Positions 11,225-55,655 of a stretch of DNA of 64,000 nucleotides are shown in pieces. The translations under genes and the position numbers were made by a program. Position 1 is the stretch's first letter; each line of letters starts with the position of its first letter. The notes beneath the pieces are model-generated. The model ran no database searches, was not told the origin of the DNA, and worked only from the letters and a program-made list of their open reading frames with translations. The DNA is from Escherichia phage Ptacy1479. The stretch lies in sequence record PQ863256.1; one strand, 5' to 3'.

Positions 11225-11233
11225 TAATGTATA
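11225..11233 (+). promoter_or_regulatory. TAATGTATA promoter-like motif upstream of large virion gene
   Basis: Motif TAATGTATATAGG lies about 40 nt upstream of ATG 11272; same core recurs upstream of four other genes. Confidence 0.4.
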
Positions 11234-11271
11234 TAGGGGGTAGGACATTTTTATTTATAAAAGGAGACGTT

Positions 11272-14200
11272 ATGGCTAACATTAAACCGTGGGAAGAAGC
11301 TTCCAAAGCTCCTGCGTATCTGAATGCCTCTCCGGAGCAACAAGCTCAAATGAGAGAACAATATAAGGCAGCAGGTGGCTCTATTCCTGAGGAACAACCA
11401 GTAGCACAACCACAACAAGAAGAACGTGGTGCTATAGGTGAGTTTGCTCAAGGTGTGTCAAATGCTCTTCAATCTGGTGGTGCAAATATTGCAGCTAGTG
11501 CTGCTAAAGGTATTGGTGGTTTAGTTGAGATTGGTGAGAATCTAGCTGGAACACAAACTAGTTATGGTAAGCGTATCCAAGAGAACTCTCAGAACCTTCT
11601 GAAAGAGCGTATGGATAAGATTGAGGATGGGGTTGGTAAAACTGTTGGTCAGTATGCTGGCGTTGCTGGTGATATTGGTATGACTGTTGCTAACCCATTG
11701 GCTGCTGCTGCTATCATCGCAGGTCGTGAGACAGGCCGTGCATACGCAGACCAAACCCCTGAAGAGGGAGAAGATAAGTCTATTCTAGATGCGGCCTTAG
11801 TGGGTGGTGCTAACTATGCGGCTCAGAGAATCCTTCCGGGTGCTGTTGGTACGGCTGAGTCCACACTTGGACGTATTGGTCAGAACGTTGCTAGTAACGC
11901 AGTGGCTGGTGCTAAAGGTGGCGCTCTTGTCGGTGCTGCTGAAGTTCAGAACAAGTATGGCGATGATAATGATCTAGCTAAGACATTGGAAGGTGTTATC
12001 GAAGAAGGTGCTATGGGTGCTGCATTCGGTGGTGCAGTTGGTGGGGTTCATGGTTTGATTAGCCGTCCGGATTCTGCTGTCTTCAAGAATACTCCAGAGT
12101 ATGCGAAGACTGATATTGCTGCTGATGATGAACTAATTCGCAGTGCTAAGAATATTGATGAATTGAAAGAAGCCTATTCTAAAGCTGAAACTGCTAACGC
12201 TGCTTCTGCTCTGAATCTTCTGGATGAGAATGGATTCCGTATTACAGATGCTGTTGCTGTAGATTCTCCTGCTGCTCAGCGTATTCTTAATACTGACCAA
12301 GCTCGTGCTGAGAAGGCTGCTTCCGTTCAGAAAGAACATTCCAACATTCCGGGCCTTAATCCTTTAGCTTCTCCTGCTAAGACTCGTGGTAAAGCCTTCG
12401 CTGATAACGAGCACAACCAGAAGCAGGCTGTTGCTATGAAGGATGCAATGGCTGATTACACCAAAGACAACACTAAAGCTCTTACGGATGTTCTAGATAA
12501 CCTAGACCGTGAATTAACATCTCTCCGAGCTTCTGGTGATTTTACTGGTAGTCCGATTGATATTAAGAATCGTACACAAGCCGACCGTGACTTCATTGAT
12601 GCTTACAAGACTTTCTACAACGAAGCAAACAGATTCAAAGCTCGTGAAGGTGAAGACTTTAACAACTTTGTAGAGAAAGCTGCTGAACTACAGAAGATGG
12701 CTGATAATGTCTCTCCAGAGATGAAGAAAGCTATCAGTGGGTTGAAGAAACTGAAAGGTATGCCTGAAGGTTTTAATCCTATCCAAGATGCTTACACTCT
12801 GAACAATACAGCTAAGTTCATGAGCAACCAAGATCGTGGTTGGACTTCCCTGACTGATGATGGATTCCGTGAGGCTTCTTCACCTAGTCTGGTAATGAAT
12901 ACTCTTGGTGCTGCTAAGTATGCTCTGAATCGCTTCTCTTCTCAGCGTGCTCGCTCTCAACGTGTTAAGCAACAAGAGTCTAACAGTGAAGCTATCCGCT
13001 CTCTTGCTCGTGGTGATTTGGAAGTTGCTCGTGCTAAATCTACTGCCGAGGAAGCTCGTGCTAGGATGGAAGAAGAACCAGTTGTTGATGACATTAAATT
13101 TAAGACGCAAAATGACGTAGAAACCGAACCGGTTCGGGAGCCTTCTTCTAGTACTGTGACGGAAGAAAATCTTCCTTCTTCTGCTCCTCAAGAAACTCCT
13201 CTTACAGCTCGTGATTTAGTTGCTCAAAGACGTGCTATCCGTCAGGCTGAACAGCGTCGCGCTGAAGAAGAGGCAGCTGCTGCTCAAGAAGCTCCGGTCG
13301 AACAAGCTCCACAGGCTGAACCTCTCCCTGCTCGTAACCCTCTAGAGGAGCGTCGTGCAATGGAACAGCAACGTGCTCAAGAAGAGGCCGCACAGGCTCC
13401 AGAACCAGCCGTAGAGGAACCAACAGTCAAAGCTGAGCCATTACCTGCTCGTGCTCCTAAAGCTCCTAAGGAAGCTGTACAGGACGTTAAACCGGCAAGT
13501 GGTGTAGAACGTTTAGCTGCTATGTCTAGTGCTGCTCGTCAGGCTACCAAAGATCGTGCAGAACGTTTTGCCCGTTCTCTGTACTCTAAGGCTGCTAAGG
13601 CTAAAGCTACTGCTGAAAACTTCTTGGCTTATAAGGGTGATCCTAAGGAATTGATGCGTCGTATTCGTCAGGAAGACAATGCTATCAATACTGAACGTCA
13701 TGAAGAAATGGCTCGTAACCAGCTGGCTTCTCAGCAAGGTATTGCTACTGCTAAGAACAACACTGTACGAACTAATTTTGCTGAATGGGTTAAAGAACGT
13801 GGTCTGCCAGAAGACATTGCTACTAAGGCATTACGTGCTGAAGAGAAAGGTTTAGGTGGGAACGTAACTAACTTGGATAGTCTGAAACGCCGTGCTGAAA
13901 GGTTGTATCAGAAGCAGCGTGAGGATGAATTTGATAGACTGTACCAACAGGCTCTAGAAGAGAACAAAGCTTTCGATAACAAGAATGCTCCTAAACTGAT
14001 TGACCAGAAGAAAGAGCTTCAGTCCGAGATTGACGCTTTGATTGATTCAGAACCTTTACGTCCTGCTCAGAAAGATGCTATGCGTAAGCTGATGAATGAT
14101 TTTGTAGATGGGAAGTTTAAATCTTCAGAGAAGGCTGGTAGGGAAGAGGCTTTGGAAGTTGGTCAGATGAAGGATATTTGGGATGGGTTTATTAATACCT

Positions 14201-15693
14201 ACAACAGAGAAGTGAATGCCTTCAACAAAGCTAACAAGAACTCTCAGTACGAAGCTGCTGCTAAGCACTTACAGGCTCGTGAAGAACGTCTTGCTACCCT
14301 CAGGAAAAAGGCTCAGGCTCGTTCAGATGCTAAGGCTGCTGTTGAGAATGAACGTAAAACTCTAGAGGCTATTGCAGCTCAGAAGAGTGAGATTGAGAAG
14401 ATGATGGAAGGTTTACCTAAACCTGTTCGTGAGGCTCAGGAATCTCGTACATTGAAACAGTTGGCTGCTCACCACGATAAGAATTCTCCAGTTCCTCCAG
14501 AGAAATTCCGTAGTTATATTGAACGTATCCACAACGCCGAGTCAGATTACCTTGATCGTCAGCGTCGTTTAACTGATGCAGAGGAAGATGCTCGTCAGGC
14601 TAAGTGGAATAAGATGTATGAGCAAGCGGAAGAGATGAACCGTAAGTTTGATGTGGACAAGAGAGTTAAGCGCAGTGAAGAGCTTAAAGCGGCCCAAGAG
14701 CGTGAGAATGACCTTATGGCAGTACAACGTCAACGTGATGACATTCATCGCCGCCTGATGCGTACTATGGAAGATAAGGGCATATCTAGAGAGGATGCTG
14801 AAGCATTTGCTGGTTCCTATATGGACAACCGTTATGCACTTCTTGAGAAGCCTATGACTCCTACTGAACATCAGAATGCTCGCTCTCGTATCGAAGCTGA
14901 TGTTGAGAAGTTTGCTAAGAAGTACGAATCAATGACTCCTATCGAGAAAGAGATTGTTAAGGTTACTGGAGATACTGAAGGTAAGCTTGATAACTTGGAT
15001 GCGGATACTAGGAAGGCTATTGAGGAGGCTCAGAAGGTTGACTCTGATATTAAGAAACTGCAAGAGGAAGAGATGGAGATGGAGAAGATTCGTTCTGCTC
15101 TGCCTGACGATGAAAGATCTCAAGCAAATTCTGATATCTTGGAAAGCATTAAACAACAGGAAGAGGTCTTTGCTGATAAAGTAGAGAAAGCTTTCTTGAG
15201 TGGGAAAAGCTTGGATGAATTGGTTAGTGTGGCTGAAGTTTTAGACAGGGTTCATGGTGCAGATAAGGCTGGTAACAACCGTCGCTTTGTACGTGCATTG
15301 CAGACTGCTGCTGAAAACAAGAAGAAGTATGGTGATAATCCGGTAGCTTGGTTTAGTGCTGATGATTACTCTGCCATTGCTAAACTTGGTGCTTCTTCCG
15401 CAGGTGGTAACAAATCCAGAGCACTGGAGAAGATCTTTGGTTCTACAGCTGAACAGGCTAAGAGTAAGTTGCTTGGTAGGGATGATGTAGCGAAGATGAG
15501 ACGTGTGATTGAAGAGAACCCTGATATTAAGATTCCTTCTTACAAGACAACGAATCGTACTGAGTACTTGCAGTTCTTGGAGAAGTTTAATGACGAAGGG
15601 AAGCCGAAGATTAAACGTGGCTCATTGTCAGAGAAGCTTGAACGCAGTAAGCGTCAATCGAGACTCCGTGTAAGAGTTCGACCTAAGGAGTGA
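11272..15693 (+). CDS. very large charged coiled-coil virion or ejection protein
   Basis: Start at ATG 11272 with RBS AAAGGAG; about 1470 aa, E/K/R/A-rich with internal AEPLPAR(N/A)P repeats; function unassigned. Confidence 0.45.
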   Translation: MANIKPWEEASKAPAYLNASPEQQAQMREQYKAAGGSIPEEQPVAQPQQEERGAIGEFAQGVSNALQSGGANIAASAAKGIGGLVEIGENLAGTQTSYGKRIQENSQNLLKERMDKIEDGVGKTVGQYAGVAGDIGMTVANPLAAAAIIAGRETGRAYADQTPEEGEDKSILDAALVGGANYAAQRILPGAVGTAESTLGRIGQNVASNAVAGAKGGALVGAAEVQNKYGDDNDLAKTLEGVIEEGAMGAAFGGAVGGVHGLISRPDSAVFKNTPEYAKTDIAADDELIRSAKNIDELKEAYSKAETANAASALNLLDENGFRITDAVAVDSPAAQRILNTDQARAEKAASVQKEHSNIPGLNPLASPAKTRGKAFADNEHNQKQAVAMKDAMADYTKDNTKALTDVLDNLDRELTSLRASGDFTGSPIDIKNRTQADRDFIDAYKTFYNEANRFKAREGEDFNNFVEKAAELQKMADNVSPEMKKAISGLKKLKGMPEGFNPIQDAYTLNNTAKFMSNQDRGWTSLTDDGFREASSPSLVMNTLGAAKYALNRFSSQRARSQRVKQQESNSEAIRSLARGDLEVARAKSTAEEARARMEEEPVVDDIKFKTQNDVETEPVREPSSSTVTEENLPSSAPQETPLTARDLVAQRRAIRQAEQRRAEEEAAAAQEAPVEQAPQAEPLPARNPLEERRAMEQQRAQEEAAQAPEPAVEEPTVKAEPLPARAPKAPKEAVQDVKPASGVERLAAMSSAARQATKDRAERFARSLYSKAAKAKATAENFLAYKGDPKELMRRIRQEDNAINTERHEEMARNQLASQQGIATAKNNTVRTNFAEWVKERGLPEDIATKALRAEEKGLGGNVTNLDSLKRRAERLYQKQREDEFDRLYQQALEENKAFDNKNAPKLIDQKKELQSEIDALIDSEPLRPAQKDAMRKLMNDFVDGKFKSSEKAGREEALEVGQMKDIWDGFINTYNREVNAFNKANKNSQYEAAAKHLQAREERLATLRKKAQARSDAKAAVENERKTLEAIAAQKSEIEKMMEGLPKPVREAQESRTLKQLAAHHDKNSPVPPEKFRSYIERIHNAESDYLDRQRRLTDAEEDARQAKWNKMYEQAEEMNRKFDVDKRVKRSEELKAAQERENDLMAVQRQRDDIHRRLMRTMEDKGISREDAEAFAGSYMDNRYALLEKPMTPTEHQNARSRIEADVEKFAKKYESMTPIEKEIVKVTGDTEGKLDNLDADTRKAIEEAQKVDSDIKKLQEEEMEMEKIRSALPDDERSQANSDILESIKQQEEVFADKVEKAFLSGKSLDELVSVAEVLDRVHGADKAGNNRRFVRALQTAAENKKKYGDNPVAWFSADDYSAIAKLGASSAGGNKSRALEKIFGSTAEQAKSKLLGRDDVAKMRRVIEENPDIKIPSYKTTNRTEYLQFLEKFNDEGKPKIKRGSLSEKLERSKRQSRLRVRVRPKE

Positions 15694-15699
15694 TAAAAG

Positions 15700-15742
15700 A
15701 AAAGCCCTCAAGGAGAAATCCAAGAGGGCTTTATTTGTTTCT
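15700..15742. terminator. bidirectional rho-independent terminator at convergence of + and - gene blocks
   Basis: Stem GCCCTC...GAGGGC followed by TTTATTTGTTTC on + strand and a T-rich run on - strand, directly after stop of 11272..15693. Confidence 0.5.
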
Positions 15743-16057
15743 AAGTTTTAAAAACCATCAAATTCGTCATACATCCCAATTCTCTTCAGAGGTCTGGATG
15801 TTCATCTTCAAAGCACCCTGAGATGCCTCCGTAGAACCAATCTGATTTACTTCCAAGAATAACAACCTCTTCATTCATATAACCCCCTTAGATTGTGTTT
15901 ATAAAATTAATAAGCTTCTCTTCACTTTCATCAAAAGCTTTTCCAGCTGCTTCCATCTCCCAAGTATCGGCATTGTCAATAAAGCTCTGAGCTTCTAATA
16001 GATCGTGGATTAAGTCGAAGAGTTTATTTTTATCTGATTGTGTGATCATGTCAGTTC

Positions 16058-16282
16058 CTAGATTAAATCGTAATACTGAATAATGTCAGAGAGTTTGAAC
16101 TCTCGAACCTCATCTTTCTCTACATCTATCGCTGTCATAATCCAACAAGGTTTGCCACCATTATGAAAACGGGAGCTAGCAACGGAGGTTCGGAGTGGAA
16201 TAACGGACCGGTCAGCAACCTCGCCTCTCCAATTGCGATAGCGAAAGCGAAGCACTTGTTGCGTAGATTTTTGATCATCACT
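16058..16282 (-). CDS. hypothetical protein
   Basis: ORF starting at internal Met (MSDDQK) abutting upstream HNH gene stop. Confidence 0.3.
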   Translation of the reverse strand, partial: SDDQKSTQQVLRFRYRNWRGEVADRSVIPLRTSVASSRFHNGGKPCWIMTAIDVEKDEVREFKLSDIIQYYDLI

Positions 16283-16679
16283 CATTTCCTTTTTTGAATT
16301 GTTTTCTTGCATCATTTTCCATCTTAGTTTTAATCTTATGACAAGGGTCTTTACACAGAACTTGAAACCCATCTTTCTCACACAGAGCACGAGAGATTAT
16401 TTCATCCCAAGTGGCTTCATGGTCAAGAGGAACTATAGGCTCTATGTGATCAATAGCCATATCCTTTACAGGGTGGTCAGAACCACACATGGCACACTTA
16501 AAGTGCATTGCCAGTCTACCTGTCTTTGGATTAATCTTCTGCTCTGTCTTGGCGTCTGCTAGTGCATCGAACATGGGCTTCCACTTTCTAGTCAGAGAAC
16601 GAATCCCTGACTTGATGAAAGAGTTGTAACGAGCTTCAGTCCACATTCCACTACAGCGAGTCTTCTCAGACTTCGCCAT
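16278..16679 (-). CDS. HNH endonuclease
   Basis: Cys/His pattern CAMCGSDHPVKDMAIDHIEPIV...LCKDPCHKIK consistent with HNH nuclease motif. Confidence 0.55.
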   Translation of the reverse strand: MAKSEKTRCSGMWTEARYNSFIKSGIRSLTRKWKPMFDALADAKTEQKINPKTGRLAMHFKCAMCGSDHPVKDMAIDHIEPIVPLDHEATWDEIISRALCEKDGFQVLCKDPCHKIKTKMENDARKQFKKGNE

Positions 16680-16858
16680 AATCAGCTTCTTCCCAAACTC
16701 GTTTGTTTACACGATGGCTCACTTTGCCCTCACGAGGAATACGACCAGTTCGCTGATCAAACAGTTGATGTTTAATCTTTTGGTCTTTACGAGATTCACG
16801 ATTGGAGGAGTTTTCATCATATGAACGATAATCAAATTTACCCATTATAATATCCTTA

Positions 16859-17677
16859 TTACCAAGATTTATCTAACCATGTCCAGTCGAACAGGTCTTC
16901 CGGAGTCTGACCAACAAAGAGTAGCCGAGCATTCTCAAGCATCTTCTCTTCATCTTCAGTATCGAACTTCTTATAATATTCCATTCGTACTATATGATAC
17001 ATGGTCCACTTATCTGTAACACCAGCCAATAGTTTAGCTGCTGCTTTCTTCCCTATTCCTTGACGTCGAAGCTGGAGCTTACCACCCCACATAACTTCTT
17101 TACGTTCTCCACACCCGGGGATATTATCTGTACCATCTCCAATAAGCATCTGATAGAAGAAATTTTGCCATGAAACTAAATCAGATACGTAGTGAGGAGG
17201 AACCTCTTTCTGTCTTTCTCCACAAGCCCAACGATAATGCCATCCGGGAGTTATCAACAAATCTTTGTCTCTAGTACAGATGATAGTGTTCTTATCTCTA
17301 CGTTGCCTTTCAGCTAGTGCATCATCAGCCTCTCTCCCAAATACATCTATGTATTCATATTTACCTTTAATGTAATCACCAACGTTTTGCCAGTGAAAAG
17401 GCCTTTCTCCGGGAGGTCTATTTGCTTTGTAGTCTTGCTGCTTAGCAACATCGAAACGGAAGTTACCACCTTCGCTGAAGTAGAACACAATCTTACTACA
17501 ACCTGATCGAGCTATGATTGTATCAATCTTATACTGAAGTCGTTCAATCATGAAATTGTAATCAACTGGAACACGTCCTGTGTCAAGAAAGGGATGCTCC
17601 TGAGTAAGAGCACCCACTTCATATCGAAGAACGTCAGCATCCACTATAGCTACTTCAGGGAGCTTAACGTCTTCCAT
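16859..17677 (-). CDS. 5'-3' exonuclease (FEN-type / T7 gene 6-like)
   Basis: Motifs IVDADVLRYEVG and IGDGTDNIPG typical of 5'-3' exonuclease PIN and H3TH regions. Confidence 0.7.
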   Translation of the reverse strand: MEDVKLPEVAIVDADVLRYEVGALTQEHPFLDTGRVPVDYNFMIERLQYKIDTIIARSGCSKIVFYFSEGGNFRFDVAKQQDYKANRPPGERPFHWQNVGDYIKGKYEYIDVFGREADDALAERQRRDKNTIICTRDKDLLITPGWHYRWACGERQKEVPPHYVSDLVSWQNFFYQMLIGDGTDNIPGCGERKEVMWGGKLQLRRQGIGKKAAAKLLAGVTDKWTMYHIVRMEYYKKFDTEDEEKMLENARLLFVGQTPEDLFDWTWLDKSW

Positions 17678-17678
17678 A

Positions 17679-18205
17679 TTATTCTCCTAGCAGCTTACGT
17701 ATTCCATTGCGGAAATTATCGTACTCTTCAGGGTATTCAAACCCACACTCAAGAAGAGCATAGTGAACAACCTTCAACAAATCCTGAACCTTATTCTTAT
17801 CTTTGTGTCGATAAGCATATTTGATCATGTTGGTTTGTTGGAAGTTCAACTGTGGGTTTGCATGATAAAACTCAACAGGTTGAATGATTTTAGATTCCGG
17901 GTTATAGTGTGCCCCACCAACCATAGTATCTAAAGCTGGACTTCTTTTGCTGGTTTGTTCGGTTGTAGGCTTAAAACTAACCACAGGAACAGATGAGTAG
18001 ATTGGGTATTCTTCGCCTACTGGTGGTTTTACTATCAACCTTTTCATTGTATACCGAATCTCTGTATCAGAGGAACCGGATGAAATCTCTTCAATAGATT
18101 TACGATAACTGTCAATAATTGCACGTAACATAGAGATTGTTTTAGTCTTCTCTTTTAATTTCTCTGTTAGTACAATAACTTCTGCTTTTTTGGATTCAAA
18201 CTCGG

Positions 18206-18215
<10 letters not shown>
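17679..18215 (-). CDS. hypothetical protein
   Basis: 178 aa ORF, translationally coupled neighbours. Confidence 0.4.
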
Positions 18216-19499
<1,284 letters not shown>

Positions 19500-19744
19500 A
19501 ATGCATCTCTTTATAAACAGTTTCCGTGTTCTTCTTCCAGTTAGATAAACCGGTAAGAACTCTCTGAGCAACTTCATCAGCTGCCCTACTTCTTTCAATC
19601 TCTAACTCTTGTTGATGCTTTTCTTTATCCAGATTGTTACTGTCTGTTCTGTACTCATTAAACTTCATGCCACCAAAGAATACAAGAGCTGAAAAGATAA
19701 CAAATCCTAGATTATCACTTAAAGTGCTTTGCATATTGTCTCCA

Positions 19745-19770
19745 ACGAAAAAAGCCACCCGGAGGTGGCT
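19745..19770 (-). terminator. rho-independent terminator
   Basis: - strand stem AGCCACC-TCCG-GGTGGCT followed by TTTTTTCG, directly downstream of SSB-like gene. Confidence 0.45.
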
Positions 19771-19791
19771 AAGCTATAACAAGGAGAGTTA

Positions 19792-20538
19792 TTAGAATGG
19801 GCTATCGTTGTCGTCTTCATAAGTAGAAGCAGGCTCTTTATCAATCGTAGGGATTGAAGGGGTAGCTTCTTTCTGCTCTGTTTCAGAAGCACGAGTAATT
19901 TCACGACCAGCCAGAGGCATGTTCTTAGCGTCATTAGCTTGAGTAAGCAGGTTGCGCTGGAACGGGAACATCAGTTGATAGGATGCTACGTTCTCATCGG
20001 TTTCAGCATACGGTTCGAAGAATACCAGAGGACTACGAGCTTCACCAACTGCTGCACGATATTTGGTTGGGATTGGAGAAATGGTCTTGATGGAGTTTTT
20101 AACTTCACCAGCTTTGTTAGTATAAGAGTTAACCAGAATGTTAACAGGCTGACCTAACAGAACATCCTTGAACCAAGACAGATCACCTTTCAGTGCTTGA
20201 ATGCTTGGGTCAATCATCTTGCAAAGATCAAGAATACCAGAGTTCTTAGCTCGTGGGTTTACATCATAGCTCTTGAACTGGCAAGCCGGACGTGGTTCTA
20301 ATGCCTTACCATCGGAATCTTTACCAGTAGCATCAACACCAATCAGCTCGAAAGCCAAATCCATACGGAAAGCCGGATTCTTAGGGGTTACTGCTTTGGT
20401 CTTCGGGTCAATCCAAGGGTCACGATTGTGAACACCCAAACCTACTACACGAACGATACGTGCTTCGTATTCACCATCAGGGATTACATCGTAGTTGGAT
20501 TTACGGGAAGCAGTTGCGATAGTTGGAATCATAGACAT
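19792..20538 (-). CDS. single-stranded DNA-binding protein (T7 gp2.5-like, tentative)
   Basis: 248 aa with acidic C-terminal tail ending EDDNDSPF, analogous to the acidic Phe-terminated SSB tail; located in replication block. Confidence 0.45.
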   Translation of the reverse strand: MSMIPTIATASRKSNYDVIPDGEYEARIVRVVGLGVHNRDPWIDPKTKAVTPKNPAFRMDLAFELIGVDATGKDSDGKALEPRPACQFKSYDVNPRAKNSGILDLCKMIDPSIQALKGDLSWFKDVLLGQPVNILVNSYTNKAGEVKNSIKTISPIPTKYRAAVGEARSPLVFFEPYAETDENVASYQLMFPFQRNLLTQANDAKNMPLAGREITRASETEQKEATPSIPTIDKEPASTYEDDNDSPF

Positions 20539-48208: not shown

Positions 48209-48451
48209 CTATGGAGTTAAGATAATTTCAGCCTTACTAAACTTCTCACCAACTTCAAGAGTATCAGCAACAGGACGAGGCACACCTGTACCCAAACAAA
48301 CAGCCCTTCGATACCCTCCAGTCACAGGCATCATCAAATAGATGACCTGATTATCATCTTCTTTTAAAGTGAAGATATCAGCGATCGCTAGATCTTTAAC
48401 AAAGAGTTTCTTTTCTTCTTCATGATGAACTTTGATATGTATTGTGCTCAT
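48209..48451 (-). CDS. ~80 aa multicopy family protein (array 1)
   Basis: Shares L..G..F and (N/C)L.TG motifs with about ten other ORFs. Confidence 0.4.
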   Translation of the reverse strand: MSTIHIKVHHEEEKKLFVKDLAIADIFTLKEDDNQVIYLMMPVTGGYRRAVCLGTGVPRPVADTLEVGEKFSKAEIILTP

Positions 48452-48453
48452 GC

Positions 48454-48705
48454 CTACTCCTGAACCACTGACATACGAATCATTTCTACCTGATCATCAA
48501 GACCTTTAACAGATAATACACCTGTGGAAAGGTTTATCACAGGAACCCAGCCACTGGCTATGCGAATGTTACCAGAAGCATTTTCAACCCTCATGTAATA
48601 CTGAGGAGAAGCACTTCCGTTCTGAACTACGAAGGGGTTTCCGGGAATGATTGTTTCCAATCGTACCGTAGTATCCTTTTTCTTAGGGATGATTTTCATT
48701 AGCAA
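48454..48705 (-). CDS. ~80 aa multicopy family protein (array 1)
   Basis: IPGNPFVVQN and VINLSTGVLSV motifs. Confidence 0.4.
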   Translation of the reverse strand: MLMKIIPKKKDTTVRLETIIPGNPFVVQNGSASPQYYMRVENASGNIRIASGWVPVINLSTGVLSVKGLDDQVEMIRMSVVQE

Positions 48706-48947
48706 TCACTCACTAAAAGTTCTGCCGACACAGGAATAACTTGGCACCAGCTAGACGGTGCTGTTACGTTACCATCAGATAGACGGAGAGAGAGTACTCG
48801 ATCAGAGTTAACGGTTACATTAGGACTTTCAGATACAGTCCCTTTGACATAGAGAGTAGCACTCTCGGGGAATTTAAACACTGCTCCGCTGGGAAGGGTG
48901 TTGAGATCAACCTTGGTCACTTCTTCTTTCTTGTGAGTAATCTTCAT
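48699..48947 (-). CDS. ~80 aa multicopy family protein (array 1)
   Basis: LPSGAVFKFPES motif; tandem with neighbours. Confidence 0.4.
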   Translation of the reverse strand: MKITHKKEEVTKVDLNTLPSGAVFKFPESATLYVKGTVSESPNVTVNSDRVLSLRLSDGNVTAPSSWCQVIPVSAELLVSDC

Positions 48948-49198
48948 TTAGAATCCTTAATAACGTTAGCTTCAACCTTAACAGGAATAACAGAGATGCC
49001 CTCAACGGGGCCACTTAAGTGTCCATCTTCCAGTCTAACACACACGACTCGATCTCGTGCAACTTCTACCCAATTAGTAGATGCCGCAGTACAGACCATA
49101 TGAATTGGACCGTTCTCTTCCAGCCGGAAGGTATCGCCCTTCTTCAGAGTGTGGAGTTTCACAGTCTTGATAGTTTTGTTCAATTCGTTAACTTTCAT
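48944..49198 (-). CDS. ~80 aa multicopy family protein (array 1)
   Basis: LKKGDTFRLEEN motif; tandem with neighbours. Confidence 0.4.
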   Translation of the reverse strand: MKVNELNKTIKTVKLHTLKKGDTFRLEENGPIHMVCTAASTNWVEVARDRVVCVRLEDGHLSGPVEGISVIPVKVEANVIKDSK

Positions 49199-49206
49199 AT
49201 TGATTC

Positions 49207-49518
49207 CTATTTGAGTTTCAGGCTAATATTAAGGTGCATACATGCCCTGTTCTGTACAGCAGCATAGCTTCTGCCGAGCATGTCAGCCATTCTCTGAATA
49301 GACATAAACCCGGCATTACGGATAAGGAACTGGTCTTCTTCTTTAGACCACTTAACTCGGATTACAGCTCTAGAGATACCAAACTTAGTGCAAGCTGTAT
49401 TAACTGCATTCTCCGTTACATTCATAATCTGAGCAACCTCTTGAACAGAGTACTCTTTGATTAGTCTCCGAAGATTTTCAATCTGTATCGGAGTCCATAT
49501 AGTTCTTCGAGCTTTCAT
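49207..49518 (-). CDS. putative DNA-binding protein with two tandem HTH-like repeats
   Basis: Two about 40 aa repeats (WTPIQIENLRRLIKEYSVQEVAQIMNVTENAV / WSKEEDQFLIRNAGFMSIQRMADMLGRSYAAV) resembling sigma region-4 or Myb-like HTH. Confidence 0.35.
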   Translation of the reverse strand: MKARRTIWTPIQIENLRRLIKEYSVQEVAQIMNVTENAVNTACTKFGISRAVIRVKWSKEEDQFLIRNAGFMSIQRMADMLGRSYAAVQNRACMHLNISLKLK

Positions 49519-49563
49519 ACATCCTCCAATTAAATATTTATATAAGACTTGCTTAGATAAAGA

Positions 49564-49597
49564 TTCAATAAAATAGGGGGAGGGGACGAATCCTCCC
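49564..49597 (-). terminator. rho-independent terminator
   Basis: - strand stem GGGAGG-ATTCGTCC-CCTCCC followed by CCTATTTTATTG. Confidence 0.4.
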
Positions 49598-49810
49598 TTA
49601 TCCTATTAATTAATATTGCATGTAAGATCTAACAATCGGTTGCCTTTGTAGGAATAAGCGTTATGCTAATCCAGCACTAAACTCCCGCCCCCCTTAGTGG
49701 GCTGGGTTATTAAAGGGTAACGCCCTTATGGGCTAGTTACGTGAATGTTAGTTTGATAGGAGATCTGAAGTCCTATCTCAAAGGACTCTCGTAAGAATCC
49801 TTCACGATAG

Positions 49811-49996
49811 TCACGCTTTGAGCGTGGTACAGATTAATGTTGCATGTCTTTGGTTATACAGTTCGAAGTAACGAGGCTTGCTCCAGTCTCTGTCTCTGGT
49901 AAATGATTGAAGGATGAAGTGTCTGTCACACCCAAGCCACTCAGAAACATCCATCGCTAGACGTATAGGAGAACCTCTGAACTCTTTCCTTTCCAT
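49811..49996 (-). CDS. hypothetical protein
   Basis: 61 aa ORF. Confidence 0.25.
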   Translation of the reverse strand: MERKEFRGSPIRLAMDVSEWLGCDRHFILQSFTRDRDWSKPRYFELYNQRHATLICTTLKA

Positions 49997-50005
49997 CCTA
50001 ACCTC

Positions 50006-50239
50006 TTACTTTTTGACGGGAAGAATCATATCCCACAGCCATGCCCACAAAATAATGGATATAAGAATCACAGCAACGATGGGCCATAGAAAAACTATAA
50101 TCGCTATCTTTGATAAGTTTGGTTCGTTACCCCACCCTCTGAACTCGACACTACCTTTTACATCGAGGAGTTTTATCAGAGCTGAAACTGTCACCATACC
50201 TATCAAGTAGACAATCAAGATACTAACAAGACTGGTCAC
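50006..50239 (-). CDS. small integral membrane protein (two predicted TM helices)
   Basis: Hydrophobic segments LVSILIVYLIGMVTVSALI and IAIIVFLWPIVAVILISIILWAWLW. Confidence 0.4.
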   Translation of the reverse strand: MTSLVSILIVYLIGMVTVSALIKLLDVKGSVEFRGWGNEPNLSKIAIIVFLWPIVAVILISIILWAWLWDMILPVKK

Positions 50240-50396
50240 AAGGTTGATCTCCGCATGTTTTACAAATTACTGGTGAATAACTACAGGCAGGGTAGACAGA
50301 AACCCCATCCCACGTCTCACACCCACAATCAGGACATGTGCCGTTTGATTCCATGTCATCATCGTCATCTACTTCACCGCCACCAAAACAACTCAT
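50223..50396 (-). CDS. small Cys-rich acidic protein
   Basis: 57 aa ORF MSCFGGGEVDDDDDMESNGTCPDCGCE...CKTCGDQPC with GGGAG RBS; below ORF-track cut-off. Confidence 0.3.
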   Translation of the reverse strand: MSCFGGGEVDDDDDMESNGTCPDCGCETWDGVSVYPACSYSPVICKTCGDQPCDQSC

Positions 50397-50405
50397 ATGA
50401 ACTCC

Positions 50406-50678
50406 CTAGTAATTTACGCCGGTGAGAGTAGCATGTTTCATGGGAACTACTTTAGCGTGTGGAAGAAACCCATCCGTTTCACCATTGGTCAGGTTTACAG
50501 CTTTCTGATACCCACCGCGAAAGGTTGTTGTTTTTATCCAAAAACACCCATTCCATTTAAACACATCACCTCCTGAGAGAGTGGACATTTCTACCGGAGG
50601 TATTCCCTCAGTTGCATTAATTATCATAGCATGTATCCCAATACATATAGTTAACATACGTTCTCGGTTTGAGTCCAT
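50406..50678 (-). CDS. ~80 aa multicopy family protein (singleton copy)
   Basis: LSGGDVFKW and AVNLTNGETDG motifs. Confidence 0.35.
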   Translation of the reverse strand: MDSNRERMLTICIGIHAMIINATEGIPPVEMSTLSGGDVFKWNGCFWIKTTTFRGGYQKAVNLTNGETDGFLPHAKVVPMKHATLTGVNY

Positions 50679-50865
50679 ATATAATGAAGTGAGTCTTCTT
50701 AATTCTTTCCTTCAGTGTGTAATAAAGGCCATCACTGAAGTTACCAATCTTCACTTGGAAACGTAAGGAGCGAGCATCCATTCGAAGCATAGAGTTTAAC
50801 TGGAACTTACTACTCCCAGCCATCTCTTCAAGAAGCTTCTTCGTATTCCAATAATGAGCTGTCAT
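50617..50865 (-). CDS. hypothetical protein
   Basis: Start at ATG 50865 with TAAGGAG RBS. Confidence 0.35.
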   Translation of the reverse strand: MTAHYWNTKKLLEEMAGSSKFQLNSMLRMDARSLRFQVKIGNFSDGLYYTLKERIKKTHFIIYGLKPRTYVNYMYWDTCYDN

Positions 50866-50866
50866 A

Positions 50867-51148
50867 CTACCACTCCTTACCGGTCGTAGTCGTAGAACCA
50901 CCACACCACTGCGCATCTGACAAGGTTTTAGTTTCCTCATCTACTGCTGCACCGTTCAGGCATGAGATACCATTGTAACGCATATCAATTTCACCAGAAG
51001 GAACCTTCTCGCCTTTGTGCCAACGAGAAACACAAACACCTTCCACTGCTACTGCACACCATCCATCAGGACGGCTCTGTACGCAGCCTGTAAGGGCCAC
51101 ACAGACAAGGAAGATACAGATTAAGGATATTACACCACCCCAACTCAT
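50867..51148 (-). CDS. lipoprotein (candidate superinfection-exclusion or envelope protein)
   Basis: Signal peptide with lipobox LTGC (ISLICIFLVCVALTGC). Confidence 0.45.
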   Translation of the reverse strand: MSWGGVISLICIFLVCVALTGCVQSRPDGWCAVAVEGVCVSRWHKGEKVPSGEIDMRYNGISCLNGAAVDEETKTLSDAQWCGGSTTTTGKEW

Positions 51149-51160
51149 AACTACCTCCGA

Positions 51161-51409
51161 TTACATATTGAGAGCCAATTCTGCGTTCTTATAAACTACA
51201 CAGCGGCTGTTGTCAGAGAAGGTATCTAAGGATACAGCGTAACCTTCTTTCATATCCAGAACCCCCTCGAAAGGTTTACCTCTAAGATTACCGGTAATCT
51301 TCATATACAAACCCACCTCTCTTCCATTGAGTTCAAGGATAGAGAAAGGTACATTGAATGGGGTTTCTTTAAATGGAACAGTTGGTTTTGAACCTTCTTT
51401 GAATTTCAT
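51161..51409 (-). CDS. small protein, possible divergent member of the ~80 aa family
   Basis: Start at internal Met 51409 (GAGG RBS); ILELNGREVGLYMKITGNLRG segment. Confidence 0.3.
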   Translation of the reverse strand: MKFKEGSKPTVPFKETPFNVPFSILELNGREVGLYMKITGNLRGKPFEGVLDMKEGYAVSLDTFSDNSRCVVYKNAELALNM

Positions 51410-51426
51410 ATCAACCTCTTGGAATG

Positions 51427-51505
51427 TGGTGCGCCCTACAGGACTCGAACCTGTAACCAATAGCTTAGAAGTAAAGTTTCTATCCTTGTAATGAAGTTTT
51501 CATTG
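51427..51505 (-). other. tRNA-like 3' fragment or pseudo-tRNA (T-arm, acceptor 3' strand and CCA only)
   Basis: - strand ...ACAGG-TTCGAGT-CCTGT-AGGGCGC-A-CCA has a good T-arm and CCA; no complementary 5' acceptor strand or anticodon stem could be folded. Confidence 0.25.
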
Positions 51506-51580
51506 TGGCGTTCCCTCGTGGAATCGAACCACGAATAAGAGCTTAGAAGGCTCCAGTTATATCCGTTTAACTAAGGGAAC
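51506..51580 (-). tRNA. tRNA-Arg(UCU): tRNA-Arg (anticodon UCU)
   Basis: Manual fold: acceptor GTTCCCT/AGGGAAC, D-stem GTTA/TAAC, anticodon stem GGAGC/GCTCT with loop CTTCTAA, T-arm CGTGG-TTCGATT-CCACG, discriminator G, encoded CCA; 75 nt. Confidence 0.8.
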
Positions 51581-51586
51581 ATTACA

Positions 51587-51943
51587 ATGAAAACTTGCAC
51601 AACCTGTCACACCCAAAAGGAAGATTCAGATTTTTACAAGAAAGGAGATCGACTTCATTCTATGTGTAAACAATGCTTCAATGCCTACTGTATTGAACGT
51701 TGGAGACAAAGAAAGACTCAAGCGGTTAAAGATTTCGGAGGTAAATGTCATGACTGCAATCAAGAGTACCCAGATGCAGTCTTTGATTTCCACCACCTAG
51801 ACCCTTCTGAAAAAGATTTTGATTGGAATAAACTAAGACTCCGATCTATTGACTCTATCAGAGAGGAGTTAAGCAAGTGCGTAATGCTCTGTGCTAACTG
51901 TCACCGTATTCGTCACATCGATTGCTCTATACAATTGAGCTAA
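51587..51943 (+). CDS. HNH homing-type endonuclease
   Basis: Cys/His-rich MKTCTTCH...CKQCF...HHLDP...CANCHRIRH; lone + strand gene next to tRNA. Confidence 0.6.
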   Translation: MKTCTTCHTQKEDSDFYKKGDRLHSMCKQCFNAYCIERWRQRKTQAVKDFGGKCHDCNQEYPDAVFDFHHLDPSEKDFDWNKLRLRSIDSIREELSKCVMLCANCHRIRHIDCSIQLS

Positions 51944-51957
51944 CGGCGCAGGGTTAT

Positions 51958-52158
51958 TTAGATCATATCTCGCTTGGTGATATGACCACATGTTTTACAT
52001 CGAAGTATATAACGAGTTCCTGTACTTTCCAGTTTACCAAACTCATTGTATGTATTTAAACTAACCGCTTTGATTGTCTCCCACTCATGGAGGTGGAATA
52101 GGTATTTAAACCACTTGATCATGTCATGAACCTTTGATAGAAAAGGATATAGCTTCAT
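51958..52158 (-). CDS. hypothetical protein (CxxC-containing)
   Basis: 66 aa ORF with RCKTCGH. Confidence 0.25.
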   Translation of the reverse strand: MKLYPFLSKVHDMIKWFKYLFHLHEWETIKAVSLNTYNEFGKLESTGTRYILRCKTCGHITKRDMI

Positions 52159-52307
52159 TTAGGGAACGAAACCGTCCAACATACTGACCTGCGGCAGAGG
52201 TTACAACAAACCACTGACCTATAAGAGTGATTCCTGCAATCCGTCGGTTATCTTTATCAGCCACTCTCCAGTAGTCTTTGTGGATTTGCTTTACATTCAT
52301 ACCAACC

Positions 52308-52559
52308 TCAAGCACAAGCAGGGAGAGTAATGATTTTATACTGACCTTCAAACTCTCCAAATAAGCCCAAGAATGTAGGACTGTAAGTACCAGTGCAAAC
52401 AAACTCATCAAACAATGCGTTATAGCTAGGCTTAATCTTCCAAGCCCATACATAACCCATCTTGTCAATTGCAATGTAACGAGTGTTCAGAGGAACAGTC
52501 ATCATCACATCGTCAACCTCGATCACTTTAGTTATTGGTGCAGCTTGAAAGTTTTTCAT
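52308..52559 (-). CDS. hypothetical protein
   Basis: 83 aa ORF. Confidence 0.3.
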   Translation of the reverse strand: MKNFQAAPITKVIEVDDVMMTVPLNTRYIAIDKMGYVWAWKIKPSYNALFDEFVCTGTYSPTFLGLFGEFEGQYKIITLPACA

Positions 52560-52732
52560 ACTTTACCTTTGATAAAAATGTCATTACCACAGACACAGCA
52601 TGAACGAACAACAGTAGCGCCACGCTGAACGATACGAACCTCTTCCTTAACCAGATTAACACGAGCACCACAGCAAGGAGAGTTAACATAAGAGTAACCA
52701 GCTTGTGTATTCTTGATTGTTTGCTTAGACAT
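52556..52732 (-). CDS. small zinc-ribbon protein
   Basis: 58 aa ORF MSKQTIKNTQ...SPCCGARV...SCCVCGND; below ORF-track cut-off. Confidence 0.3.
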   Translation of the reverse strand: MSKQTIKNTQAGYSYVNSPCCGARVNLVKEEVRIVQRGATVVRSCCVCGNDIFIKGKV

Positions 52733-52733
52733 T

Positions 52734-53081
52734 TTATTCGAGATCTCTTAGTTGTTCAGCCAATTGTTCGCACTCGTTGATGCAGAACTCTTCTGTTCTT
52801 GGAACCCCATTAGGGTTGAACCGTGTCTTATCACACGCATGGGCACAATCAAATCCGACCGTATTTAAACCACCCATTTCTTCGAGAGAATCCTGCCACG
52901 TAACACCGCCATGGACGTCGACATAACAAACCTCTTCCTCGTCCCCATTATATCCGGTGAAGTTTTTACTGCTCAGAGTGTCTGGCAACTCCACATACCC
53001 ACAAAAGTGGGAGTCATTCATGTGCATAATAACAGCACGAAGACCTGATTTAGTTACCCAATCTTTAACCATGCGTCTCAT
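52734..53081 (-). CDS. hypothetical protein
   Basis: 115 aa ORF; VDVHGGVTW and GFDCAHA segments, family not recognised. Confidence 0.35.
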   Translation of the reverse strand: MRRMVKDWVTKSGLRAVIMHMNDSHFCGYVELPDTLSSKNFTGYNGDEEEVCYVDVHGGVTWQDSLEEMGGLNTVGFDCAHACDKTRFNPNGVPRTEEFCINECEQLAEQLRDLE

Positions 53082-53120
53082 ATAAGCACCTCTTGTTAGT
53101 TTAAGTAAGAGCTGACCCTT

Positions 53121-53153
53121 AATTAAAACAACAAAGGCCGCCCGAAGGCAGCC
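53121..53153 (-). terminator. rho-independent terminator
   Basis: - strand stem GGCTGCC-TTCG-GGCGGCC followed by TTTGTTGTTTTAATT, right after stop of 53159..53410. Confidence 0.5.
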
Positions 53154-53158
53154 TCTCT

Positions 53159-53410
53159 TTATTGACTAACACCACAAATCAGATGATTCTGTAGCATTTC
53201 GTCTTCTGCATTATACAGGAATGCAAACATCAACTCCTTAGCCACATCTCTTGAGCAATTAAGACACTTAGAGATTTGCGTTAGTTGCATGTTGCGTTCT
53301 GTGTGTTCCATCAAGGCAATGCGAATGATTTCTCGCATACCTATCACATGGGTTGTCTTAACCGGCATAGGTCCAACTGCCTTGCTTGTTACAGATGGCT
53401 GACATTGCAT
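53159..53410 (-). CDS. hypothetical protein
   Basis: 83 aa ORF followed by terminator. Confidence 0.3.
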   Translation of the reverse strand: MQCQPSVTSKAVGPMPVKTTHVIGMREIIRIALMEHTERNMQLTQISKCLNCSRDVAKELMFAFLYNAEDEMLQNHLICGVSQ

Positions 53411-53856
53411 GAATCCAGAAGCCTTCCAGTTTCAGAGCACCATTAGCTACTGCATCCATACGTTCAGGGCGGTTCATACGTTTGGTTGATACTTTCATAC
53501 CTATCTCTCTTTGTTAGTGGAGGCATTATTGCCAGTTGATATAAGGGATAGCCCTAGTCAGTAGACTAATCCTGACCGCGTACTCATTGCCGACCTTCTC
53601 TGCCTAAGAGTTCAGGTTCTAGAGCTATCTCTTATTCCAACTGGTGAAGACTCCCTACCCCTAGGAAGTCTCCTAAATCCCAAACCAATACGTACCCCTA
53701 CATATCGGAAAGTCTATCGAAAATTAACAGGTTTTAGTCTAACACCGGATGTTCGAGCAAGCTCTCCCTAGCGGTGCGGCATATGCCTGATTGATATAGT
53801 TAATGAGGAACACCCTCACATAGCCCTCTGATAAACACAAGGGCTATAAGTCGATG

Positions 53857-54168
53857 TTACTTAACTGATTCAATCATTTTACGAACGTTAGCCACACCTT
53901 TCTGAATCAAAGGCAGGAACTCATCACCCAAACTAGAAGATAGAAGACTCAAACTCCCCGTCTTAATGCCACGACATGCTGACTCTACTTCTTCCGGCAA
54001 CAATGTCATATTAAACCACGGAGATTTAATCTCTACTGTAAATCCGGGGTTATATCGGCTCTCGCTATGATTAAACTCCAGATAGGTAACACCGGAGCAG
54101 TGTTTCATTTGAGCACGAATTGTTACAGCGGGCTTACATATCACAAAAGAAGAAACAGACATAATCAC
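53857..54168 (-). CDS. hypothetical protein
   Basis: 103 aa ORF. Confidence 0.3.
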   Translation of the reverse strand: MIMSVSSFVICKPAVTIRAQMKHCSGVTYLEFNHSESRYNPGFTVEIKSPWFNMTLLPEEVESACRGIKTGSLSLLSSSLGDEFLPLIQKGVANVRKMIESVK

Positions 54169-54173
54169 TTACC

Positions 54174-54392
54174 TTACTTTTGAGTCACATGTAGATCAGG
54201 GCGAGGTGTAACAGTAGTGCCGCCCTTAAAAAGACCAACATGACCAGTACGAAGATTGGCTGCTTTATGTGAACCATTATTTGCTACCTCTTCAAGCAGC
54301 AACCAGAACCGGCTATCATAAAAGAAAACCGACCCACTTTCTAGATCACATATTTTTGAAAACTTAAGAGGTTTACCTTCATTGATTTCCAT
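54174..54392 (-). CDS. ~80 aa multicopy family protein (array 2)
   Basis: LESGSVFFY and AANLRTGHV motifs. Confidence 0.4.
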   Translation of the reverse strand: MEINEGKPLKFSKICDLESGSVFFYDSRFWLLLEEVANNGSHKAANLRTGHVGLFKGGTTVTPRPDLHVTQK

Positions 54393-54647
54393 TTACTTAC
54401 CCTTGTTGGTAATCACTGCATCAGGAATAAGGACTACAGGAATATCTGAAGCGAGCTTCATAACCTGATTGATGTTTAAATTAAGCACCACACAACCGGC
54501 ACTAGGCTTAACTTCGGCTACGTGTGGAGTGAAGAGTTGCACAATCATGTAATAACTTATACCGGTGTTTTTAACTTGGAACACATCCCCAAGCTTCAGA
54601 TCACTCAACTTAAGTTCTGGATTCTTCCACTCAAGATCAATCTTCAT
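54393..54647 (-). CDS. ~80 aa multicopy family protein (array 2)
   Basis: LKLGDVFQV motif. Confidence 0.4.
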   Translation of the reverse strand: MKIDLEWKNPELKLSDLKLGDVFQVKNTGISYYMIVQLFTPHVAEVKPSAGCVVLNLNINQVMKLASDIPVVLIPDAVITNKGK

Positions 54648-54883
54648 TCTTCCGCCTTGTTCGTGAGTCGAGCGTTGTGAACTTTCTTAACAACTTCATG
54701 AGTGAAACCATCAGAAATCACACCAGTTGAAAGGTTAATATATTTTCTCTGATCTCCTGATTTGTTATAAACACTTGAGGACATATAATAATCGCTCGTG
54801 TTCAGAGGGAATTGAAAAACCTCCCCCGACTCTAAATCACCAAGACAAATAATTTTAGGGGTGTAGTTCATGTCAATCTTCAT
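54644..54883 (-). CDS. ~80 aa multicopy family protein (array 2)
   Basis: LESGEVFQF and INLSTGVISDG motifs. Confidence 0.4.
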   Translation of the reverse strand: MKIDMNYTPKIICLGDLESGEVFQFPLNTSDYYMSSSVYNKSGDQRKYINLSTGVISDGFTHEVVKKVHNARLTNKAEE

Positions 54884-55109
54884 CTTTAGCCTCGATGTTG
54901 GTTATATGAAGATCACTACGTACCTGGCAGACTTCATCCCGTTTAAAAGGCATGAGCTTTCCAGTTACCACATCAACACAGTTCACATAGTTATCTGCGT
55001 ATAATGTGTCGGTTCTGATATAAAGAGAGTCTTTACGCTCAAATAGAACGCCCGGCTTCATGTTATTTAAGCGAAGCATTGTACGATCGGATTTAATATT
55101 AACTTTCAC
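54873..55109 (-). CDS. ~80 aa multicopy family protein (array 2)
   Basis: MKPGVLFER and VDVVTGKL motifs. Confidence 0.4.
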   Translation of the reverse strand: MKVNIKSDRTMLRLNNMKPGVLFERKDSLYIRTDTLYADNYVNCVDVVTGKLMPFKRDEVCQVRSDLHITNIEAKDED

Positions 55110-55111
55110 TG

Positions 55112-55369
55112 TTAATCCACCTTATTAGTAAGACGAACATTATCTACTATCTGAACAACAGTATCTTTTCTTAACATTGTTACTTTATCTGAAGTAAGAT
55201 CTACTACTACCCTTTCATCAGACTTCCAACTAGCCGAATAAACGGTTGAGGAATCTAGCTTTACTGTAAGATATAATTTATTTTTAGGTGGCACAGTTTC
55301 AAAAACACTTCCAACCTTCAGATCTTTCAGCTGCTTAACTACAGGGGCTGTATTAATGTCATGCTTCAT
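55112..55369 (-). CDS. ~80 aa multicopy family protein (array 2)
   Basis: Start at ATG 55369 with AGGAG RBS; LKVGSVFET motif. Confidence 0.4.
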   Translation of the reverse strand: MKHDINTAPVVKQLKDLKVGSVFETVPPKNKLYLTVKLDSSTVYSASWKSDERVVVDLTSDKVTMLRKDTVVQIVDNVRLTNKVD

Positions 55370-55655
55370 TGTTAATCTCCTGCTGCTTAGCAATAGCTAC
55401 TCGCAAGTCTTCATTAGCACGAGCAAGGCGTAATACTTCATGATTAAGGCTCTGAAGACGCTTATTTCTGTCTTCAACTTGCATAATAAGATCGTTAAGT
55501 GTTACTTTAACTTTCTCATTGTACATCTCGTCCACTCGGACTAGGGATTTATACATTCTCTCCCAGCTTGCTGCTTTGTTTCTGAGAACAATAAACCCTA
55601 TAACGCTGATAGTTAAACAGAGTACAAAAAGGAATTTATATACCTCTAAAGTCAT
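55359..55655 (-). CDS. membrane-anchored coiled-coil protein
   Basis: N-terminal TM FLFVLCLTISVIGFIVL followed by heptad-rich segment. Confidence 0.4.
   Translation of the reverse strand: MTLEVYKFLFVLCLTISVIGFIVLRNKAASWERMYKSLVRVDEMYNEKVKVTLNDLIMQVEDRNKRLQSLNHEVLRLARANEDLRVAIAKQQEINNEA

Follow-up and report, generated by a model that had tools for sequence, protein, structure and literature searches.

Small early phage proteins that have an SH3-like barrel and occur in expanded sets are a familiar category of gene products. In the Tevenvirinae, this category is represented by the GoF/MotB.1/Frd.2 family of phage T4, whose non-essential early proteins have been described as having an "LSm-like fold" (PMC12152347). 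Separately, in the temperate Bacillus phage phi3T, a protein named Nip was found to carry SH3-like domains and to work by binding the defence protein SpbK, not by catalysis (PMC11984713). Here, we describe an uncharacterised addition to the category of expanded small early proteins, found in Escherichia phage Ptacy1479, of the genus Kuravirus (phiEco32/SU10-like, C3-morphotype podoviruses of Escherichia and Shigella). It is a family of single-domain proteins of 72–85 amino acids (aa) encoded in two tandem arrays, A and B, and a singleton, S1, within a stretch of 64,000 nucleotides (nt) of sequence record PQ863256.1, the whole of which we call the window.

Like the T4 GoF family, the family described here consists of small early phage proteins with several paralogues per genome, and both share a predicted five-stranded bent beta-barrel of about 80–90 residues, as well as the same nearest solved structures, namely FeoA, the SH3-like domains of IdeR/SloR, and the Hfq/KOW class. 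Unlike our family, the T4 GoF proteins have an extra C-terminal domain, dispersed genes, and none of the G..F, Y-M-K-T, or V-N-L-x-T-G motifs. GoF and MotB.1 were rejected as members of the same family, given that their comparison by hhalign with a 129-sequence alignment of the family gave P = 0.11 and 0.25, respectively, and a scan of T4 positions 1–20000 found no family member. In the case of Nip, the likeness is that of a phage protein with an SH3-like domain, but Nip, a single-copy protein of 279 aa, combines two SH3-like domains with an HU-like dimerisation domain, and these SH3-like domains were also rejected as the same family (hhalign P = 0.05–0.3). The cellular small barrels (FeoA, KOW in NusG/Spt5, L2, EF-P, Tudor/PWWP, and the DtxR-family SH3 domain) show no Pfam profile match to this family and reach fold scores at the level of any SH3-like pair, and the family has its own motifs and a conserved MK(I/V) N-terminus. 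Specifically, neither a profile nor a motif match was found to KOW (NusG/Spt5/L24, PF00467); no profile match to FeoA (PF04023), a class recognised also by feoB association or metal-binding histidines, or to the DtxR-family SH3-like domain; and no Pfam LSM or Hfq match to LSm/Hfq, whose N-terminal helix is also missing from the structural model described below.

A Single Family of Paralogues in Tandem Arrays

A preliminary description of this locus had proposed about eleven diverged copies of one protein family in two tandem arrays plus singletons, and all 11 open reading frames (ORFs) do exist on the minus strand, at its coordinates or close to them (Table 1). Profile comparisons confirm that A2, A3, A4, S1, and B1–B5, which we call the core members, and also the diverged A1, are paralogues of a single family, arranged as two tandem arrays and one singleton. 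The proposed count is thus lowered to ten firm members, and the second candidate singleton, S2, is not demonstrably one of them.

This conclusion was reached by means of leave-one-out searches, in which a profile made from eight core members was run against the 811 six-frame ORFs of the window. The held-out ninth member was found at E = 6e-13 to 3e-6, with the best non-member at E ≥ 0.03. Across the arrays, a profile of array B plus S1 found three of the three array-A members A2–A4 at E ≤ 6e-5, and a profile built exclusively from proteins outside the window found 9/9 core members at E = 4e-18 to 3e-12. The PHROG models of different members also match one another over their full length, and profile searches of the rest of the 64-kb window gave no further member. 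The architecture noticed at first (MK(I/V), then L..G..F, an aromatic residue, and (N/C)L.TG) corresponds to true family anchors in the 129-sequence alignment, and it can be written as a motif set of fixed spacing, MK(I/V), L17-x2-G20-x2-F23, Y33-M-K-T36, V49-N-L-x-T-G54, and V65, with all anchors present in the nine core members. The motifs are therefore significant in the profile comparisons, and the profiles do not assign the core members to unrelated families.

The opposite explanation, that the shared motifs are a chance or compositional likeness of unrelated small ORFs, or that these ORFs are not genes at all, draws on the low pairwise similarity. Identities between pairs are only 16–34%, BLASTP is convincing within the arrays only (A3–A4, 2e-13; B3–B5, 5e-10; B2–B5, 3e-7; B4–B5, 2e-6), and between arrays its E-values are no better than about 1e-3. 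We consider this explanation refuted, because the leave-one-out and outside-profile searches retrieve the members at 1e-6 to 1e-18, cleanly separated from the controls, because none of the nine neighbouring small proteins tested matches any family PHROG, because the matches are full-length, in register, and of fixed anchor spacing, and because ribosome-binding sites are present and the orthologues are under purifying selection in more than 100 phage genomes.

The Diverged Member A1 and the Candidate S2

Alignment-based comparison identifies A1 as a diverged member of the family. It reaches E = 0.002 by hmmsearch against a broad profile from outside the window, and the alignment of its orthologues matches the family by hhalign with 92.5% probability (P = 5e-7). 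Its own PHROG, phrog_12612, is matched by 27 of the 129 family members, and in SU10, SkaterBoy, SGF2, and YF01 the A1 slot holds a protein more typical of the family, with scores of 1e-10 to 7e-9. In A1, Ala replaces the invariant G20, with F23, Y-L-M, and x-L-G-T-G being kept; the NLxTG motif reads CLGTG in A1 and VNLGTG in its orthologues.

As for S2, alignment evidence suggests that it may be a very distant relative of the family. No hmmsearch match to the family profile and no PHROG match were found for it, its motif likeness is loose only, and just two related clusters were found. By hhalign, it matches the family over its full length and in register with a probability of 75.8% (P = 2e-5). 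Used alone, the S2 sequence takes second place among 250 control ORFs (P = 1.8e-3; the next one, 0.017), which is not significant after correction for multiple testing. An AlphaFold2 (AF2) model of S2 made from three sequences is all-beta, with a low-confidence predicted local distance difference test score (pLDDT) of 48.

Conserved Architecture and Predicted Fold

In the 129-sequence alignment, the invariant or nearly invariant positions are G20 (100%), F23 (100%), an aromatic Y/F/W33 (98%), M1 (97%), G54 (97%), I/V3 (95%), and V65 (92%), with K2 at 65%; further conserved columns are L14, L17, D/E21, V22, M34, K35, T36, V49, N50, L51, T53, and V68. All of these are positions of the hydrophobic core or of Gly/Asn turns, and neither a catalytic-type polar constellation nor a conserved basic or aromatic surface motif was found among the conserved columns of this alignment. 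The spacing of the anchors is invariant except for two loops, F23–Y33 (6–14 residues) and T36–V49 (8–33 residues), which by analogy with SH3 domains would correspond to the RT and n-Src loops flanking the ligand groove.

The shared small beta-barrel that had been suggested for these proteins is supported by an AF2 model and by fold searches. The model was made for B2 with a 30-sequence family alignment and has a pLDDT of 78.8 (about 85–91 in the core) and a predicted template modelling score (pTM) of 0.67, with strands at residues 22–25, 33–35, 51–56, 61–66, and 70–73 and no N-terminal helix of four residues or more. Foldseek of this model against PDB gave no match below E = 0.035; among the predicted viral structures of BFVD, the significant matches are small uncharacterised proteins of Kuraviruses and other phages, and these neighbours belong to the family itself. 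The fold searches gave no specific functional label, the PDB neighbours being only generic SH3-like barrels. The model therefore settles the predicted fold at the class level only, as an SH3-like five-stranded beta-barrel.

Variation and Selection among Kuraviruses

The 7.5-kb region has about 100 matching Escherichia and Shigella phages of the genus Kuravirus, of which Ptacy1532 is the best match, with 94% identity and a coverage of only 77%; most of the other phages cover only 50–60% of the region. Because coverage is partial even in the best-matching phages, the region is unusually mosaic.

We compared the early regions of eight genomes, i.e., this phage and seven related ones. They hold 7–10 family members per genome in at least 15 orthogroups, with no more than 44% identity between groups, and the genes sit in syntenic slots that show presence/absence and allele replacement. 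For example, B5 is absent from Ptacy1532, SU10, and YF01; Ptacy1532 and SkaterBoy have an additional member that separates B1 from B2; and the S1 allele found here is only 41–44% identical to the allele of the same slot in the seven other Kuraviruses. The median identity to the best counterpart in the seven phages is 68% for the family vs. 96% for 20 neighbouring genes (p = 0.001), and the median rate of synonymous substitution (dS) is 0.9 vs. 0.26, about 3.5-fold higher (p = 1e-4). The median ratio of nonsynonymous to synonymous substitution (dN/dS) is 0.19 for the family vs. 0.08 for the neighbours. The most conserved slot is B4, with 88–100% identity across the eight phages and a dN/dS of 0.03, and A4 is 97% conserved (dN/dS 0.04). 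Between nearly identical phages, it is mainly in the family slots that genes are gained, lost, or replaced by another allele.

The diversifying selection first proposed for these genes is not supported at the gene-wide level. Gene-wide dN/dS is 0.03–0.34 for every family gene, and therefore each member is under purifying selection; gene-wide positive selection was rejected because the ratio is below 1 everywhere. Since the divergence is accompanied by a raised dS, old alleles swapped by recombination fit these data better than a rapid in-place evolution of the proteins. Recent duplication or gene conversion was also rejected, because there are no nucleotide repeats between the paralogues. The other part of the proposal, that low identity reflects old duplications, agrees with paralogues of at most 34% aa identity that retain no residual nucleotide similarity and with the similarly low identity between orthogroups. 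In summary, the history of the family is one of ancient tandem duplication, lasting purifying selection, and inter-phage exchange of old, diverged alleles.

Beside the family genes, a 66-aa ORF with a C-terminal CxxC (51958–52158, minus strand) is the sole non-family gene of the region with family-like variability (46–98% identity to its counterparts in related phages).

The Family beyond Kuraviruses

The family had not been recognised in the preliminary description, and in fact neither Pfam nor NCBIfam gave a match for any member, and the 129-sequence profile found nothing among the PDB sequences. The members of the window match PHROGs 7832, 6570, 7431, 8365, 16423, 9955, and 12612 (E = 1e-13 to 4e-49), all labelled "unknown function", and gp21 of phage N4 (74 aa) is a clear member, with a family-profile E of 5e-18. 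These are cases of true membership, although the PHROGs are kept as separate, unannotated families. On the basis of these profile matches, our analysis unites at least seven separate PHROGs in a single superfamily that comprises about 2,000 sequence clusters. Among the papers accessible to search, there was nothing describing these PHROGs as one superfamily, their tandem expansion, or a function, N4 gp21 included.

When 1.84 billion cluster representatives were searched exhaustively with a family profile, 2,183 matched at E ≤ 1e-3. Among the best 150 of them, 120 are stand-alone proteins of 67–100 aa aligned end to end and about 16 are two-domain fusions. The giant-protein matches of the first profile (cadherin, NHL repeats, and Ig_7) were discarded as domain fusions, since they were lost or became marginal with a broader profile and are thus spurious; some other giant-protein matches persist with the broader profile, and no functional clue came from them. 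A tblastn search with the family consensus found one phage only. Multi-copy sets do recur in unrelated phages: a 190-kb metagenomic phage carries seven family genes (eight domains) in 7 kb, including a four-gene array, a tandem pair occurs in a phage with a YonG-like gene, and Vibrio phage 1.101.O has two copies.

More distant relatives may also exist. A chromosomal protein of Bacteroidota with 478 aa (L016, 3583–5019; L017, 8001–9437) carries a SprT-like metalloprotease domain at its N-terminus and, after it, five tandem repeats, each of which matches the core of the phage family at E = 2e-7 to 4e-6, and its gene is flanked by housekeeping genes (SusC/D, LpxK, RF-1). By this sequence likeness, the barrel of the family may have cellular relatives. 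Likewise, gene 104 of phi3T, a homologue of SPbeta YopY (L020, 11116–11409), has a weak and partial profile match (E = 0.005 among 172 ORFs, profile positions 4–59), and gene 104/YopY may thus be a distant relative of the family in SPbeta-like phages.

Probable Expression Class and Proposed Function

In phiEco32 and SU10, the region homologous to this one belongs to the early, sigma-70-dependent class and contains mainly small hypothetical genes (PMC9965538, PMC4281155, PMC8948821). From this position, we infer that the family genes of Ptacy1479 also belong to the early class, in agreement with the early-region placement first given to them. Upstream of the entire leftward gene cluster, the minus strand has three strong sigma-70 promoter-like sites with 11/12 matches, at positions 59752, 60239, and 62917; the total number of promoter-like sites in the window shows no excess over chance. 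The operons are densely packed, with neighbouring genes overlapping by 1–11 nt and having ribosome-binding sites. In particle preparations of SU10, 34 proteins were detected, none of them a family member (PMC4281155), and a virion association of the family was ruled out on this basis.

We propose that the family consists of small binding modules, with different host or defence targets for the different paralogues, a reading to which we give about an even chance. The small soluble, single-domain SH3-like barrels would be made early from packed, translationally coupled operons, and each paralogue would work as a non-enzymatic module whose variable loops and surface bind a different partner, most likely a host protein or a component of host defence. 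As a set, the copies would be an exchangeable repertoire that acts early, serves to take over the host or counter its defences, and is suited to the infected strain. This proposal was reached because the scaffold is rigid and non-catalytic, variation is confined to loops, the genes are of early class and in tight operons, selection is purifying, the repertoire is hypervariable, and multi-copy sets are recurrent. The role in host takeover or anti-defence, for which these genes had been put forward as candidates, is plausible from context only.

Several points weigh against such a reading. It is deduced from missing enzymatic features and from genomic context, and the analogy with the SH3 loops comes from a predicted model in which the variable loop is of low confidence. 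The slots of A2, A4, and B4 are 92–97% conserved, like ordinary genes, so that not every copy is a variable cassette, and a gene-wide dN/dS below 1 gives no direct arms-race signal. Besides, the members in the window are near-neutral to basic (isoelectric point, pI, 5.7–9.3), unlike the acidic median of the family.

The main rival to these binding modules for varied host or defence partners is a set of LSm/KOW/Tudor-like binders of nucleic acids or of the transcription/translation machinery, which would tune RNA stability, termination, or the RNA polymerase or ribosome early in infection, with paralogues differing in target. It is favoured by the fold neighbours and by the T4 GoF precedent, in which the mutant GoF(D25Y) stabilises an mRNA (PMC12152347), and also by the mildly basic A2, A4, and B5 (pI 8.7–9.3). 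Nevertheless, we regard it as unlikely. The wild-type T4 proteins had no effect on RNA (PMC12152347), GoF and MotB.1 show no sequence relation to the family, and the 129 members are devoid of KOW, LSm, or other nucleic-acid-binding Pfam signatures. Their conserved residues serve the core and turns, and do not form a basic or aromatic surface motif. Moreover, these 129 sequences are acidic overall (median pI 5.2, 62% below pI 6, and only 9% above pI 8), and this mostly acidic character speaks against a generic affinity for nucleic acids.

A narrower form of the binding-module reading is that the paralogues are inhibitors of anti-phage defence, one per system, which would account for the broad resistance of the Gordonclarkvirinae to restriction–modification and other defences; the BASEL study notes that these phages withstand restriction systems with no known inhibitor to explain it (PMC11990801). 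The family slots being the most variable genes between related phages speaks for it, and so does the setting of a 98-kb metagenomic phage contig (L018, 10001–14794), in which four family members lie among the NAD-salvage pair PRPP synthetase and NAPRTase, TerC, two TerD, and a ProQ-like gene. Some single copies adjoin DUF932, DUF4313, and DUF6927 genes in apparent mobile-element regions, and Nip of phi3T, through its binding of SpbK, provides the precedent for an SH3-like counter-defence binder in a phage (PMC11984713). On the other side, no similarity was found to any characterised anti-defence protein tested, Nip included, the BASEL paper itself offers DNA modification (dCTP deaminase, nucleotidyltransferase) as the basis for the resistance to restriction–modification (PMC11990801), and N4 has one copy and some phages two, so that a large repertoire is not general. 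In this strict form, with one inhibitor per system, the idea is plausible but, in our view, unlikely. Broader still, and in our opinion quite improbable, is a picture in which the superfamily of about 2,000 clusters would be a general phage "specificity scaffold", its two loops retuned to host immune or housekeeping proteins, with the Kuravirus repertoires of 7–10 copies serving as a counter-defence arsenal that aids the unusually broad defence resistance and host range of the Gordonclarkvirinae.

Gene Inventory and Neighbouring Genes

The members and the candidate S2 are listed in Table 1. Inspection of Shine–Dalgarno sequences and the lengths of orthologues favour the shorter starts of A2, S1, and B5. 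In A2, the ATG at 48699 is preferred to a TTG at 48705, its orthologues being of 81 aa. The start of S1, at first placed at 50678, was corrected to 50627, given that the PHROG match begins at residue 18 of the longer ORF and that the orthologue P0047 has 73 aa (86% identical). The start of A2 overlaps the stop codon of A3 by 1 nt, and A4 and A3 share a 4-nt ATGA overlap. The nearest paralogue of B1 is S1 (BLASTP E = 1.6e-4).

Table 1. Family members and candidate ORF of the Ptacy1479 window (E, leave-one-out search).
Name	Coordinates	Strand	Length (aa)	PHROG	E	Remarks
A1	48209..48451	-	80			Diverged member; last gene of array A; AGGAG ribosome-binding site
A2	48454..48699	-	81	phrog_7431	1.2e-6	
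A3	48699..48947	-	82	phrog_7832	6.5e-11	
A4	48944..49198	-	84	phrog_7832	6.6e-12	First gene of array A
S1	50406..50627	-	73	phrog_6570	2e-6	Singleton; from Met18 of the longer ORF
S2	51161..51409	-	82			Accessory ORF between lipoprotein gene and tRNA-Arg; possible distant relative
B1	54174..54392	-	72	phrog_6570	2.7e-6	Last gene of array B
B2	54393..54647	-	84	phrog_9955	1.2e-11	AF2-modelled
B3	54644..54883	-	79	phrog_9955	5.7e-13	4-nt overlap with B2
B4	54873..55109	-	78	phrog_16423	7.6e-8	GTG start; AAGGTGGA ribosome-binding site
B5	55112..55369	-	85		6.5e-10	First gene of array B; from ATG at 55369; GCAGGAG ribosome-binding site

Directly upstream of A4 lies a D5-like regulator gene (49207–49518). 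Upstream of B5, and overlapping it by 11 nt, there is a 98-aa membrane/coiled-coil ORF (55359–55655, minus strand) in which a hydrophobic segment at the N-terminus precedes a charged, heptad-like region; several related genomes, and also phrog_12154, name it "DNA helicase", a label that is probably a propagated error, because 98 aa is far too small. Directly downstream of array B is a 103-aa accessory ORF (53857–54168, minus strand; phrog_3566, unknown function) which, like S2, has no counterpart in the seven other Kuravirus early regions. At the position of S2, phage Paul has an HNH endonuclease, and therefore S2 and this ORF are read as variable insertion slots.

The only plus-strand gene of the leftward early cluster (51587–51943) encodes a Cys-rich, HNH-like ORF of 118 aa, with CxxC pairs and "NCHRIRH", and adjoins tRNA-Arg(TCT) at 51506–51580 (minus strand); by these features, it looks like a homing-endonuclease insertion. 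A very acidic 57-aa ORF (50223–50396, minus strand), conserved at 93–98% in related phages, has 10 Cys, including CPDCGC and CKTCGD, and a DDDDD run, and is possibly a zinc-ribbon mini-protein. Apart from the family, a second and unrelated set of tandem paralogues occurs in the middle-gene region, where three abutting genes of 65–69 aa (32114–32323, 32323–32532, and 32532–32729, minus strand) have in common a "TR.EAR..KK" motif in the middle and the ending "KV[IHY]YY" at the C-terminus. One 75-aa ORF separates this set from a dCTP-deaminase-like ORF of 177 aa (32934–33467).

Concluding Remarks

The early regions of phages form the chief reservoir of host-takeover and anti-defence proteins still to be discovered. 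With the present analysis, a superfamily that lacks both a Pfam entry and a solved structure now has a definition, which is useful even if its function proves mundane, and the classic phage N4 is shown to carry one of its members, gp21. The ten small soluble proteins of Ptacy1479 make a tractable list of targets, and a rigid barrel with two variable loops is a structural hypothesis that can be tested. The interest of the family is moderate, and it comes from its size, from its absence from curated domain databases, and from its role as the main variable element of Kuravirus early regions. In these phages, which are used in phage-therapy work, the family genes are the principal variation between genomes that are otherwise 95% identical.

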